Source: an uncultured bacterium
GTDB taxonomy: Bacteria; Gemmatimonadota; Gemmatimonadetes; Longimicrobiales; RSA9
Length of the DNA stretch: 64,000 bases
Reading direction: 5' to 3'
Assembly: GCA_937889645.1 (NCBI GenBank)
Contig: CALBZE010000091.1
Location: 5,672-69,671, forward strand
In this document: positions 33,974 to 51,382 of the stretch, in pieces
Position numbering within the stretch: position 1 is the stretch's first letter
Layout: each line of letters begins with the position of its first letter
Position numbers and translations under genes: made by a program
The notes under the pieces: model-generated
The model's database searches: none
What the model was told of the DNA's origin: nothing
Seen by the model: the letters and a program-made list of their open reading frames with translations, nothing else

Positions 33974-35152
33974 ATGGACGAACTGACATTGACGGATGCG
34001 CAGCGCGAGCTGCTTTCGAAATTTCGCGACGGCCAGCGCACGGCACTGGCCCGCACGATATCGATCGTCGAGAGCGAGCGGCCCGGGTTCCAGGCGCTGC
34101 TCGGCGAGCTTCACGCGTCGCTCGGCAGGGCCCACCGGATCGGGATCACCGGCCCGCCCGGCGCGGGGAAGTCGACGCTGACCGGGCGCCTGGCCGCGGC
34201 GTACCGCGAGCGCGGTGAGACCGTCGCCATCGTCGCCGTAGACCCGACGTCGCCCTTCACGGGCGGCGCATTGCTCGGCGACCGGATCCGCATGAACGAC
34301 ATCGTCCTGGACCCGGGGATCTTCATCCGGTCCATGGCGACACGCGGCTCGCTCGGCGGTCTCGCCGTCACGACCGAGGAGGTCGTCGACGTTCTCGATG
34401 CGTTCGGGTTCGACCGGATCCTCATCGAAACGGTAGGGGTCGGGCAGTCCGAGCTGGACATCGCCGCCGCGGCGGACACGACCGTCGTGGTGCTCGTCCC
34501 GGAATCGGGCGACGGGATCCAGGCGATGAAGGCCGGGCTCATGGAGATCGCCGACCTGTTCGTCGTCAACAAGGCGGATCGCCCGGGCGCCGACCGACTC
34601 GTCCGCGACGTCGAGATGATGCTCCGGCTCCGCGAGGGTCGCACCAGCTTCCGCGTCCCCGCGCACCACGGCGTCGACCTCCGCAAGGTCGCGGAGGCGA
34701 CGCAAGCGCGCGATGCGGCCGGAAGGGGCGCGGCCGCGGCGAACGAGGAGGTCTCGACCGGCGCGCCGGGAGGCGACCGGGCCGCCTCGGGCGGCCCCCG
34801 GGGCGCTCACGGCGGCAACGAAGCGGCGCCATCCGTGGCCGCGGCGGCGCCCGACCGCTGGGAGATCCCCGTCCAGAAGACGATCGCGGAGCAGGGCGAG
34901 GGTGTCGCGGCGCTCATCGAGGCGCTCGACCGCCACCGCGACTGGATGGCCGAATCCGGGAAGTTGAGCGAGAAGCGCCGCGAGCGGCTGGATCGGCGCG
35001 TCCGCGATGCGGTCGCCCGACAGCTCGCGCGCACGGCGTGGCAGGAGCGGGGCGGGGAGGCGATCCTGCGCGAGTCGCTCGAGGCGCTCGAATCGGGTCG
35101 CGAGAGTCCCTACGCGGTGGCGGCGCGAATCGTGCGCGCCGTCACGGGGTAG
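33974..35152 (+). CDS. meaB: MeaB/ArgK-type GTPase chaperone for B12 mutases
   Basis: GITGPPGAGKST, VDPTSPFTGGALLGDRIRM, ETVGVGQSE, GDGIQAMKAGLMEIAD, NKAD. Confidence 0.95.
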   Translation: MDELTLTDAQRELLSKFRDGQRTALARTISIVESERPGFQALLGELHASLGRAHRIGITGPPGAGKSTLTGRLAAAYRERGETVAIVAVDPTSPFTGGALLGDRIRMNDIVLDPGIFIRSMATRGSLGGLAVTTEEVVDVLDAFGFDRILIETVGVGQSELDIAAAADTTVVVLVPESGDGIQAMKAGLMEIADLFVVNKADRPGADRLVRDVEMMLRLREGRTSFRVPAHHGVDLRKVAEATQARDAAGRGAAAANEEVSTGAPGGDRAASGGPRGAHGGNEAAPSVAAAAPDRWEIPVQKTIAEQGEGVAALIEALDRHRDWMAESGKLSEKRRERLDRRVRDAVARQLARTAWQERGGEAILRESLEALESGRESPYAVAARIVRAVTG

Positions 35153-35195
35153 AGGGGCGAGCACGGGTTCCCTTCAACACGACAGGGTTGAGAGC

Positions 35196-36917
35196 ATGGG
35201 TGTGATGGATCGCGAAGCGGCGGCCGCCGGGCTCGAGGAGCAGATCCGGGAGAAGGACCGCGAAATCGCAGAGCTTCGCGCTCGGCTGGCGGAGTGGGAG
35301 GCGGCGTTCCGGCGCACGCCGACCCGTGAGACGAGCTTCACGACGGTCTCGGGGGTGCCCGTCGCCCCGCTGTACACGCCCCTCGACGCGCCGAACGCCG
35401 GCGACTACCTCGAGAAGATCGGCTTCCCCGGCGAGTACCCGTTCACCCGCGGCCCGTACACCACGATGTATCGGACGCGGCTCTGGACGATGCGCCAGTT
35501 CGCCGGCTTCGGCACTGCCGAGGAGACGAACCGCCGATACCACTACCTCCTCGAGCACGGGCAGACGGGCCTCAGCGTCGCCTTCGACTTCCCCACGCTC
35601 ATGGGTTACGACTCCGACCACCCGCGCTCGCTGGGCGAGGTAGGGAAGTGCGGCGTCGCCGTCTCGAGCCTGGCCGACATGGAGACCCTCTTCTCCGGGA
35701 TCCCGCTCGACCAGGTCTCCGTCTCCATGACGATCAACGGTCCGGCGATCATCCTCTTCTGCTTCTACGTCGTCGCGGCGGAGAAGCAGGGCGTATCGCC
35801 GGAGAAGCTGCGCGGCACCGTCCAGAACGACATCCTGAAGGAGTATCAGGCGCAGCACGCCTGGATCTACCCGCCGGAGCCGGCGGTCAAGCTGATCGTC
35901 GACATGTTCGAGTGGTGCTCGAAGCACGCGCCGAAGTACAACCCGATCTCGATCAGCGGCTATCACATCCGCGAGGCGGGTGCGACGGCCGCGCAGGAGC
36001 TGGCCTACACGCTGCGCAACGGCTTCGAATACGTCGAGCGCGGTATCGCGCGCGGCCTGGACGTCGACGACTTCGCGCCGCGCCTCTCCTTCTTCTTCGA
36101 CGTCCACAACGACTTCTTCGAGGAGATCGCCAAGTTCCGCGCCGCGCGCCGCATCTGGGCCAAGCGGATGAAGGAGGTCTACGGCGCGAAGAAGGAGGAG
36201 TCCTGGCGGCTGCGCACTCACGCCCAGACTGCCGGCGTCACGCTCGTCGCGCAGCAGCCGGAGAACAACATCATCCGCGTCGCCTACCAGGCGCTCGCGG
36301 CTGTGCTCGGCGGCACGCAGTCTCTGCACACCAACTCGATGGACGAGACGCTCGCGCTCCCCACCGAGAAGGCCGTGCGCATCGCGCTGCGCACGCAGCA
36401 GATCCTGGCCTATGAGACCGGCGTCGCCAACACGATCGACCCGCTCGCGGGGTCCTACTACGTCGAGGCGCTGACGGACGAGCTCGAGCGCCAGGCCGAG
36501 GCGATCTTCGACGAGGTCGAGCGCCTCGGCGGCGTCGTGCCCGGGATCGAGAAGGGGTACTTCCAGCGCGAGATCGCGCGCAGCGCCGAGCGCCAGCAGC
36601 GCGAGATCGAGTCCGGCGAGAGGATCATCGTCGGCATCAACGCCTTCACCGGCGGCAACGACGACTCCGACATCGAGATCCTCAAGATCGGCGACGACGC
36701 CGAGCGCCGTCAGCGCGAGCGACTGGCCGAGCTGCGCGCGCGCCGCGACGACGCGCGCGTCCGGGCGGCCCTCGCCCGCCTCACCGAAGCGGCTCGCAAC
36801 GACGAGAACGTGATCGAGCCCATGCTCGACTGCGTGCGCGAGTACTGCACCCTTTACGAGATCCGGCACGCGCTCGAGCAGGTGTACGGCGCCTACAAGG
36901 AGCCGGTCTTCTTCTGA
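35196..36917 (+). CDS. B12-dependent acyl-CoA mutase large (substrate-binding) subunit with isobutyryl-CoA mutase-type residues
   Basis: [62 protein letters not shown]; no fused B12 domain. Confidence 0.9.
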
Positions 36918-36946
36918 TGCACGGCTCGCCCGACCCCGCACGGGCC

Positions 36947-36996
36947 CACGCGCGAGGTCGCCGGACCGCCGGCCGCGGCGGTTCGGCCCTCGCGTG
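36947..36996 (+). terminator. GC-rich stem-loop after the mutase gene (possible terminator or processing site)
   Basis: CACGCG..GAGG pairs with CCTCGCGTG; inner ACCGCC pairs with GGCGGT; no U-tract. Confidence 0.35.
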
Positions 36997-37024
36997 AGCC
37001 GAGGGTCACCCGCACCACTTGCGA

Positions 37025-50368: not shown

Positions 50369-50406
50369 CGCCGAGCGCCTCGAGCGACCCCGCCCGCGGG
50401 CGTCGC

Positions 50407-50436
50407 TTGACACGAGGTTCCGTTCCGATCTAACCT
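50407..50436 (+). promoter_or_regulatory. Possible sigma70 promoter for the downstream lipoprotein gene
   Basis: TTGACA, 18-bp spacer, TAACCT (weak -10). Confidence 0.4.
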
Positions 50437-50498
50437 ACGACCGCGCCCGGGATGCAGTCCCCCCGGGCGCGGTTCCCCTGTTTCATAGGAGTCGGTGG

Positions 50499-50960
50499 AT
50501 GCGACGTCGCTCCGTGAACACGTCCCTGATGGTGGTTCCGGTGCTCGCGCTCGTCCTCGCGGCGTGCGCGACGCGGACCGAGCGCATCGCGGTACCGCCT
50601 TCGGATTCGAACGTCGCGCCGGTCCTCACTGTCGAGCGATTCCTCCGCGCGGTCAACGCGCGCGACTTCGAGACCATGGCGCGGTTGTTCGGGACCAGCC
50701 AGGGCTCCGTTAGGGACCGGGACCCGCAACCCGAAGTCGAACGGCGCATGTTCGCCCTCGCCTCCGTGCTTCGCCACGACGATTACGCCGTCGACGACGA
50801 GATGCCCGTGCCGGGGCGCAGCGGCGAGGCGGTGACCATAGTCGTCCGGCTCAAGGTGGGCGAGGAGCGCTTCCCCGTGCCGTTCACGGTGGTGCGCAGC
50901 AAGAAGGCCGGCTGGTTGGTCGAGAACATCGATATCCTGCGGATCACCGCGGGGACCTGA
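50499..50960 (+). CDS. Hypothetical lipoprotein
   Basis: Signal peptide with LAAC lipobox; TVERFLRAVNARDFETMARLF suggests an NTF2-like helix start (inference). Confidence 0.72.
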   Translation: MRRRSVNTSLMVVPVLALVLAACATRTERIAVPPSDSNVAPVLTVERFLRAVNARDFETMARLFGTSQGSVRDRDPQPEVERRMFALASVLRHDDYAVDDEMPVPGRSGEAVTIVVRLKVGEERFPVPFTVVRSKKAGWLVENIDILRITAGT

Positions 50961-50980
50961 TCGAGAGGCCCGTTCGGGGA

Positions 50981-51382
50981 TCACTCCTGGACCAGCTCGA
51001 TCAGGACGCCGCCGGTGCTGCCGGGGTGGATGAACGCGACGAGCCGGCCGTGCGCGCCCGGACGCGGGCGCTCGTCGATGAGACGCACGCCCGCGGCGGA
51101 TAGTCGCGCGAGTTCCGCCTCGAGGTCCGGCACCCGATAGGCCAGGTGGTGGAGACCGGGGCCCCGCTTCGCCAGGAACCGACCCACGGGCGAATCGGGC
51201 GATGTCGGTTCGATCAGCTCGATGCGGCCGACGCCCGTCCCGACGAAGACGACGTCCACGCCCTGGGATTCGACCCGCTCGCGCGGGGAACCGACGCCTC
51301 CCGTCAGGAGTTCGTACACGGGAAGCGCTTCTTCTATCGAGGCCACGGCGATCGCAACGTGGTCGAGAGGTCGCTGTTCCAT
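50981..51382 (-). CDS. mce: Methylmalonyl-CoA epimerase (VOC family)
   Basis: LDHVAIAV, IELIEP, FLAKRGPGLHHLAYRV, PGAHG..VAFIHP..TGGVLIELV. Confidence 0.9.
   Translation of the reverse strand: MEQRPLDHVAIAVASIEEALPVYELLTGGVGSPRERVESQGVDVVFVGTGVGRIELIEPTSPDSPVGRFLAKRGPGLHHLAYRVPDLEAELARLSAAGVRLIDERPRPGAHGRLVAFIHPGSTGGVLIELVQE

Follow-up and report, generated by a model that had tools for sequence, protein, structure and literature searches.

A candidate network for methyl-branched acyl-CoAs in Gemmatimonadota: an Atu/Liu-type module with a split AtuA beside the genes of a B12-dependent mutase

We analysed a stretch of 64,000 nucleotides (hereafter the window) from a soil Gemmatimonadota (Longimicrobiales-like) metagenome-assembled genome of 3.79 Mb that is estimated to be 100% complete. 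Between 33.9 and 51.4 kb of the window, genes for a B12-dependent acyl-CoA mutase lie close to genes resembling those of the Pseudomonas Atu and Liu pathways. Three of the enzymes encoded there, namely an acyl-CoA carboxyltransferase (CT), a crotonase-family hydratase (ECH), and AtuA together with a separate small partner (AtuAB), appear to constitute a module of the Atu/Liu kind, with carboxylase, hydratase and acetate-releasing lyase steps. We give roughly an even chance to the idea that this module and the mutase belong to one catabolic network for methyl-branched acyl-CoAs, in which the mutase would handle the alpha-branches and the module the beta-branches. The link between mutase and module, which we draw from a gene neighbourhood conserved in two phyla and from the coupling of a mutase gene to the CT gene, is the new element; the arrangement is undescribed, while the enzymes are of known kinds and no new chemistry is involved. 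The DNA of the window is about 70% GC, and genes were called by third-position GC first and then by family searches. These searches recovered every gene that an initial annotation of the region had named, each about where it had been placed; its description of a split AtuA, of an MCC-beta-like CT and of a LiuC/AtuE-like hydratase likewise held, as detailed below.

To our knowledge AtuA has been an unassigned member of the acyclic-terpene pathway ever since that pathway was described, and the initial annotation had it supplying an unassigned step here. Structure comparison does not bear this out. An AlphaFold2 model of AtuA (pLDDT 83.9) was matched by Foldseek over its full length to the citramalate lyase chain 9EVF_A (E 1.9e-27, TM 0.78), the second-best match reaching only E 6e-4. 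A phmmer search of AtuA against the PDB gave no sequence match, and a profile built from 29 AtuA homologues matched 9ERQ/9EVF, annotated as “AtuA family protein | citramalate lyase subunit A (cmlA)”, with an E value of 0.003. The separately encoded small protein behaves in the same manner, in that the sole significant Foldseek match to its model (pLDDT 90.5) is 9EVF_B, the CmlB subunit (E 1e-5, TM 0.64/0.70). The pair thus consists of a PF07287 protein with the fold of CmlA and a separate PF23544 protein with the fold of CmlB, that is, of structural counterparts of both subunits of a solved lyase, the title of 9EVF being “citramalate lyase - ADP - pyruvate complex”. A 2026 preprint on Raoultella planticola describes Cml (cmlAB) as an enzyme that splits citramalate directly, giving pyruvate and acetate (bioRxiv 10.64898/2026.01.16.699985), and the literature on the Atu pathway expects AtuA to carry out a 3-hydroxy-3-isohexenylglutaryl-CoA:acetate lyase step (PMC13689101). 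By analogy, the two reactions would break the same bond, taking the carboxymethyl arm off a tertiary alcohol with acetate as the leaving product. Since the models of AtuA and of the small protein match CmlA and CmlB, AtuA and its small partner likely perform the lyase step rather than an additional unknown one. We also considered AtuA as a B12-dependent catalytic subunit and rejected this candidate, as the protein has the CmlA fold and atu clusters elsewhere contain no B12 subunit. A canonical 3-hydroxy-3-methylglutaryl-CoA (HMG-CoA) lyase was not found in the genome. Its sole HMGL-like gene, on contig C142, is like isopropylmalate or homocitrate synthase and was rejected as a candidate for that function.

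The CT belongs to the gamma-carboxylating lineage of methylcrotonyl-CoA carboxylase (MCC) and geranyl-CoA carboxylase (GCC), as judged from alignment and from its best match in the PDB, the P. aeruginosa MCC-beta structure 3U9R (402 bits), with the GCC-beta structure 5IKL at 300 bits. MCC and GCC are told apart by a gate residue, which is Phe191 in MCC and Gly162 in GCC, and by an extended N-terminal helix and a three-residue insertion that are present in MCC (Jurado et al. 2015, PMC4673880). Alignment with P. aeruginosa MCC-beta and with the AtuC of a canonical Acinetobacter atuABCDE cluster placed the extended helix in the window CT, as well as the three-residue insertion ahead of the gate; the gate itself is an alanine in the window and in its relatives (QYGASR vs EHFGR), neither the phenylalanine of MCC nor the glycine of GCC. 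The oxyanion-hole motifs AGGAY and GAG are intact. A further insertion of 15 residues at the start of the C domain (residues ~328–345, window 40810–40860) is kept in the Gemmatimonadota relatives and is absent from P. aeruginosa MCC-beta, Acinetobacter AtuC and a Rhodococcus CT. These features suggest an acyl pocket that is broader than that of MCC. There is no biotin carboxylase–biotin carboxyl carrier protein (BC-BCCP) alpha subunit in the window, and the genome encodes only two BCs, one of them AccC on contig C35 and the other encoded, together with a separate BCCP, next to a methylmalonyl-CoA mutase (MCM) gene on contig C125; from this gene content, the CT probably uses the BC and BCCP encoded beside the MCM. 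The window CT was rejected as the organism's propionyl-CoA carboxylase (PCC) beta subunit, a canonical PccB/MmdA-type CT (TIGR01117, 811 bits) being encoded on contig C13.

The hydratase carries the active-site signature expected of the step that follows carboxylation. It reads AGGAG at the position of crotonase Glu144, where glycine replaces glutamate, and keeps Glu164 (YPE). This single-glutamate pattern is found in all 43 of the 43 syntenic ECH orthologs and in Acinetobacter AtuE, and six crotonase paralogs in the same genome keep GGGxE. AtuE and bacterial LiuC are reported to carry this signature, and in them the free carboxylate of the substrate is believed to take the place of the missing glutamate (PMC13689101). 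A complete Liu/Atu set is not what we find, as the genome has no LiuE and the window has no dedicated acyl-CoA dehydrogenase (ACAD; LiuA or AtuD), nor any regulator. In relatives, an ACAD resembling butyryl-CoA dehydrogenase (Bcd) and short-chain acyl-CoA dehydrogenase (SCAD) lies 3–8 kb downstream of the ECH gene, and the source genome has an ortholog of it on contig C51. This loosely linked dehydrogenase is like butyryl-CoA dehydrogenase and not like isovaleryl-CoA dehydrogenase (IVD).

In the module that we propose, the CT would carboxylate the gamma-methyl group of a 3-methyl-2-enoyl-CoA, the single-glutamate hydratase would add water to give a tertiary alcohol, and the AtuA/DUF4387 lyase would split off acetate to leave a 3-oxoacyl-CoA, substituting for the HMG-CoA lyase that the genome lacks. 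The same proteins could in principle serve biosynthesis, with the module running in reverse or as a decarboxylase to supply isovaleryl- or isobutyryl-CoA starters for iso-branched fatty acids and with the mutase balancing the butyryl- and isobutyryl-CoA pools, as in the alternative isovaleryl-CoA pathway of myxobacteria. Isobutyryl-CoA mutase (ICM) supplies starter units in Streptomyces, and cultured Gemmatimonadota and Blastocatellia are reported to contain fatty acids of the iso-C15:0 type among their main lipids; in addition, the cluster offers the CT no alpha subunit and the window no ACAD. HMG-CoA synthase, however, was found in 0 of 5 genomes, the characterised homologue CmlAB works as a lyase, and the homologous AtuA, CT and ECH clusters of Rhodococcus and Acinetobacter are catabolic and encode acyl-CoA ligases, an ACAD and an alpha subunit as well. 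We therefore regard a biosynthetic role as very improbable and favour the catabolic direction.

Next to this module, the window encodes a mutase large (substrate-barrel) subunit, mutL, and a B12-binding small subunit, mutS. Alignment of mutL with the solved structures 1REQ, 5REQ and 2XIJ and with HcmA revealed a phenylalanine at the position of Tyr89 of Propionibacterium shermanii MCM (RQFAGF, the same as in the Y89F mutant 5REQ) and a glutamine at the position of MCM Arg207 (YQAQHAW). HcmA is its best match in the PDB (577 bits), yet at the positions of HcmA Ile90 and Asp117 mutL has phenylalanine and alanine. By these residues, mutL reads as neither an MCM nor a 2-hydroxyisobutyryl-CoA mutase and carries an ICM-type signature. 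The Phe/Gln signature is kept in all of the syntenic mutL orthologs, every mutL homologue in the related loci being of this type, and in a phylogenetic tree the Phe/Gln subunits of Gemmatimonadota and Acidobacteriota form one clade apart from their Tyr/Arg paralogs (support 86/92). The gene for the G-protein chaperone MeaB lies directly upstream of the Phe/Gln mutL gene in relatives. Judged from the signature, the most probable substrates of the enzyme are acyl-CoAs without a carboxylate, alpha-branched forms being converted to straight-chain ones and back, and the conversion of isobutyryl-CoA to butyryl-CoA is our default assumption for it.

Copy numbers suggest that the mutase does not have its small subunit to itself. 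The genome contains a second large subunit, a Tyr/Arg MCM (RQYAGF, YIARGTY) encoded on contig C125 directly downstream of the BCCP gene and near the BC gene. Small subunit, MeaB (by tblastn) and methylmalonyl-CoA epimerase are each present in a single copy, and all three copies are inside the window. Because the window's small subunit is the only one in the genome, it would also have to serve the Tyr/Arg MCM. The same constitution, two large subunits (one Tyr/Arg and one Phe/Gln) with one small subunit, held for all five genomes compared (three from Gemmatimonadota, two from Acidobacteriota), and in each of these the single small-subunit gene is beside the CT gene or AtuA; in genome G004 it lies beside AtuA and away from both large subunits. 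These counts suggest that one B12-binding small subunit and one MeaB are shared by the Phe/Gln and Tyr/Arg large subunits. With the small subunit and MeaB for the MCM encoded in the window, and the BC and BCCP for the CT encoded beside the MCM, the two loci appear from the copy numbers to be mutually dependent. The order on C125 (57707–61841) is BC, then, after intervening sequence, a RumA-like methyltransferase, BCCP and the Tyr/Arg MCM large subunit; a small-subunit gene is absent from it. The epimerase, which the initial annotation had counted as part of the set, was near AtuA in 0 of 80 related loci and belongs with the separate Tyr/Arg MCM of the propionyl-CoA route, not with the conserved cluster.

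The proposed network would comprise two sets of enzymes, the adenosylcobalamin-dependent Phe/Gln mutase with MeaB and the genome's sole small subunit, and the carboxylase, hydratase and lyase module, both of them sharing subunits with the propionyl-CoA route. Its substrates would come from branched-chain amino acids, iso- and anteiso-fatty acids and isoprenoid acids, and it would not amount to one strictly linear pathway.

To place the mutase genes relative to the module in other organisms, we fetched 80 loci around AtuA homologues and mapped the window proteins onto them. The order ABC1-MeaB-mutL-CorC-(methyltransferase)-mutS-CT-AtuA-small subunit-ECH recurs in about 25 Gemmatimonadota loci. 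One Pfam-annotated relative (locus L081) has the same order, together with both of the membrane mini-proteins listed below and with the start/stop overlap of mutS and CT that the initial annotation had noted for the window, where it amounts to 20 nucleotides. In most relatives CT abuts AtuA, the S41 peptidase and TPR (tetratricopeptide repeat) pair between them in the window being a lineage-specific insertion; the methyltransferase gene between CorC and mutS has the opposite orientation to its counterpart in relatives, and in the window it stands between the mutase unit and the mutS-CT unit. In Blastocatellia (Acidobacteriota; Pyrinomonadaceae and Chloracidobacterium) mutS lies just upstream of AtuA, and ECH, the small lyase subunit, CT and sometimes mutL are found within 10–20 kb in varying order and orientation. 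The expectation that Phe/Gln mutases co-occur with DUF1446 proteins was thus borne out, the set being together across Gemmatimonadota and reordered in Blastocatellia.

For a wider sample of 121 genomes of the phylum, mutL was scored by the codon pattern WTxRQF[AS]GF. AtuA is present in 94 of the 121 genomes and the pattern in 93. AtuA and a split Phe/Gln mutL share a contig in 76 genomes, in 71 of which they are no more than 15 kb apart (median 7.7 kb). Eleven genomes have AtuA and lack the pattern; four of these have an ortholog that is 71–72% identical (RLFSGF/AQHAW), five have a fused IcmF, and two have neither. Five genomes without a split Phe/Gln mutase, G063, G081, G069, G086 and G112 (loci L109–L113), encode a fused IcmF-type protein of about 1150 amino acids (FAGEGG, DQAQNT), which in G112 is about 9 kb from AtuA. 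Two side observations concern the Blastocatellia and Acidobacteriota loci. A small secreted or lipoprotein-like open reading frame (ORF) of 113–134 amino acids with the motif NGTKWV lies between the B12 small subunit and AtuA in Blastocatellia (L068:9517–9921 and L063:9564–9905), and a second short crotonase-like gene of 180–198 amino acids adjoins the small AtuA subunit in Acidobacteriota (L068:12597–13139 and L063:15284–15880). A literature search found no paper on the Gemmatimonadota cluster; its matches to AtuA/DUF1446 were mostly the Portuguese word “atua”.

Several observations weigh against the network that we favour. The AtuA pair is only 17–20% identical to CmlAB. Mutase and AtuA are each near-universal across the class, which makes their phyletic co-occurrence uninformative there. 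Their losses are independent, with eight genomes retaining a mutase but no AtuA and an odds ratio of about 2. Within the order to which the window belongs the linkage is broken, the genes often being hundreds of kilobases apart (G066, G073, G082), and the housekeeping genes for ABC1, CorC and the methyltransferase are as syntenic as those of the proposed pathway, so that inherited gene order could account for some of the linkage. As the small subunit must also serve the MCM, its position beside CT is not specific to a link between the Phe/Gln mutase and CT, and sequence alone does not separate ICM from pivalyl-CoA mutase specificity. Lastly, the genes of the window form at least three units separated by genes on the opposite strand, and a search for an operator motif shared upstream of the three units returned only chance matches typical of GC-rich DNA.

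One account of these points is that there is no functional link at all, and that the genes of the mutase, of MeaB and of the shared small subunit lie near the Atu/Liu module through inherited gene order. The equal synteny of ABC1, CorC and the methyltransferase fits this account, as do the three separate transcription units of the window with no shared operator, the independent gains and losses within the class, the broken linkage in the window's own order, and the Rhodococcus and Acinetobacter modules, which have no mutase. It does not sit well with the Blastocatellia, where the set stays within 10–20 kb despite scrambled order and orientation, nor with the insertions of unrelated genes, which differ by lineage and have left the set undispersed. 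The conserved mutS-CT overlap, and the small subunit of G004 that stands beside AtuA away from both large subunits, also argue against this account, and we consider it improbable.

An account at the other extreme, the one offered with the initial annotation, would connect everything in series. The Phe/Gln mutase would be of the pivalyl-/isovaleryl-CoA type and would turn quaternary or alpha,alpha-dimethyl acyl-CoAs into beta-methyl acyl-CoAs, which an ACAD and then CT, ECH and AtuAB would process. Enzymes of the IcmF type convert isovaleryl-CoA and pivalyl-CoA into each other, and the presumed route of pivalate degradation leads through the Liu pathway. The linkage kept in two phyla and the translational coupling of mutS to CT are consistent with such a series, and the enlarged alanine gate of the CT would admit 3-methyl-2-enoyl-CoAs larger than methylcrotonyl-CoA. 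On the other hand, the ACAD linked in relatives is Bcd/SCAD-like and not IVD-like, and with such a dehydrogenase a parallel route from isobutyryl-CoA to butyryl-CoA fits at least as well as a mutase that feeds the CT. Genomes that lack the split mutase have the classical IcmF (FAGEGG, DQAQNT) instead, within the class the distribution of one gene does not follow that of the other, the mutase being found without AtuA in eight genomes, and quaternary-carbon substrates are rare while the genes are near-universal in the class. We found no residue evidence for pivalyl-CoA mutase specificity. On this balance a strictly serial pathway seems to us unlikely. We are similarly doubtful about a fully interlocked version of the favoured network, in which one small subunit and one MeaB would serve both the MCM and the ICM-type mutase, one BC/BCCP would serve both the PCC-type and the MCC/GCC-type CTs, AtuAB would replace HMG-CoA lyase (yielding acetate and a 3-oxoacyl-CoA), and the mutase would supply the carboxylase module.

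The genes of the region (Table 1) form at least three transcription units rather than one operon, and the block is split by unrelated genes for CorC, the methyltransferase, the S41 peptidase, the TPR protein and ClpB. A scan of the window for promoters and terminators gave nothing useful in 70% GC DNA. YbeY is encoded upstream of the CorC/CNNM gene in relatives, which identifies this part as housekeeping context. The AtuA start is probably M70 of a longer ORF, and relatives align from residue ~70. Two membrane mini-proteins are encoded among the genes of what would be a soluble acyl-CoA pathway; the start of the 59-residue one overlaps the AtuA stop (ATGA) and that of the 65-residue one overlaps the ECH stop (GTGA). 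ClpB was near AtuA in 0 of the 80 related loci, and the 206-residue ORF that follows it on the plus strand gave no match in Pfam or NCBIfam.

Table 1. Features of the mutase and AtuA region, in window coordinates. L081 is the Pfam-annotated related locus.
Feature	Coordinates	Strand	Evidence
MeaB G-protein chaperone	33938–35152	+	TIGR00750, 325 bits (cutoff 241)
Acyl-CoA mutase large (substrate-barrel) subunit, mutL, Phe/Gln ICM-type signature	35196–36917	+	PF01642, 765 bits
CorC/CNNM transporter, unrelated to the pathway yet syntenic	37019–38380	+	Pfam CNNM, CBS, CorC_HlyC
S-adenosylmethionine-dependent methyltransferase	~38430–39185	-	68% identity to the L081 methyltransferase (tblastn)
B12-binding small subunit, mutS, IcmB-like	39414–39848	+	TIGR00640, 180 bits; DGHDRG motif
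Acyl-CoA carboxyltransferase (CT), beta subunit, MCC/GCC gamma-carboxylating lineage	39829–41535	+	PF01039, 461 bits
S41 peptidase and TPR protein	41548–44438	-	Pfam matches
AtuA (DUF1446), putative large subunit of CmlAB-type lyase	44621–45994	+	PF07287, 516 bits
59-aa membrane mini-protein, conserved	45991–46170	+	Translation; homologous to a 55-aa gene at the same position in L081
AtuA_ferredoxin (DUF4387-like), putative small subunit of lyase	46200–46550	+	PF23544, 111 bits
Crotonase-family hydratase (ECH), AtuE/LiuC single-glutamate active site	46555–47334	+	PF00378, 178 bits
65-aa membrane mini-protein, conserved	47331–47528	+	Translation; homologous to a 64-aa gene in L081
ClpB	47633–50368	+	
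206-aa ORF, between ClpB and the epimerase	50340–50960		Third-position GC 0.86, good coding statistics
Methylmalonyl-CoA epimerase	50981–51382	-	TIGR03081, 137 bits (cutoff 115)

If the fully interlocked version of the network exists, it would constitute an undescribed route, widespread in Gemmatimonadota and Blastocatellia, for acyl-CoAs with alpha-, beta- and possibly quaternary branches. The copy counts suggest that B12-binding modules may be shareable between mutases of different specificity. Such sharing, if real, would bear on how “orphan” mutase and carboxylase subunits are annotated in metagenome-assembled genomes and on the view taken of branched lipid and amino acid recycling in abundant soil phyla. 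The match of the split pair to CmlAB, the neighbouring single-glutamate hydratase and gamma-carboxylase, and the genomes without HMG-CoA lyase together make it directly testable now whether AtuA-type two-subunit enzymes are acetate-releasing 3-hydroxy-3-alkylglutaryl-CoA lyases.

Each part of the system has a known counterpart from which it differs. For the lyase this is CmlAB of R. planticola (9ERQ/9EVF), which shares the two-subunit architecture, both model folds and the expected chemistry, in which a carboxymethyl arm is cut from a tertiary alcohol and acetate is released; CmlAB, however, acts on free citramalate, and for the pair in the window the presumed substrate is a 3-hydroxy-3-alkylglutaryl-CoA or the corresponding acid. 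The mutase resembles Streptomyces IcmA/IcmB with MeaB, as well as the fused IcmF, in having Phe and Gln in place of Tyr89 and Arg207 of MCM. In common with IcmA/IcmB it has a separate B12 small subunit with the DxHxxG motif and an adjacent MeaB gene, and the fused IcmF stands in for the split enzyme in some relatives. Unlike in Streptomyces, one small subunit and one MeaB appear here to serve both large subunits, the small-subunit gene is coupled to the CT gene and not to the large-subunit gene, and the split MCM of the same genome (59% identity) is about as near to mutL as any other protein.

At the level of pathways, the route for pivalate, in which pivalyl-CoA mutase precedes the Liu pathway, likewise combines a mutase for non-carboxylate acyl-CoAs with carboxylase, hydratase and lyase steps. 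The type of lyase differs, pivalyl-CoA specificity finds no support here, and near-universality in a whole class would be unexpected for a trait limited to a rare substrate. The atu-like cluster on plasmid pDND3A of Rhodococcus gordoniae (locus L092) shares the split AtuA (55% identity) with its small partner, the CT and an ECH without Glu144, and differs in having a TetR regulator, a BC-BCCP alpha subunit, an ACAD and acyl-CoA ligases and in lacking mutase genes; the atu-type clusters of Rhodococcus and Acinetobacter in general have the same set of AtuA, small subunit, CT and ECH, with alpha subunit and ACAD and without mutase. The closest parallel is the Atu/Liu system of Pseudomonas (AtuA-H; LiuA-E), with which the window shares a CT of the gamma-carboxylating lineage, a single-glutamate hydratase and an AtuA-family protein adjoining both, and hence the logic of carboxylating, hydrating and cleaving to strip a beta-methyl branch. 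In contrast to the Pseudomonas system, the cluster described here lacks an alpha (BC-BCCP) subunit, an ACAD and an AtuR/LiuR regulator, and the genome has no HMG-CoA lyase of the LiuE type; AtuA is encoded by two separate genes that flank one for a membrane mini-protein, the CT has an alanine gate (where MCC has Phe and GCC Gly) and a 15-residue insertion, and the genes of a B12-dependent mutase are linked to the module.

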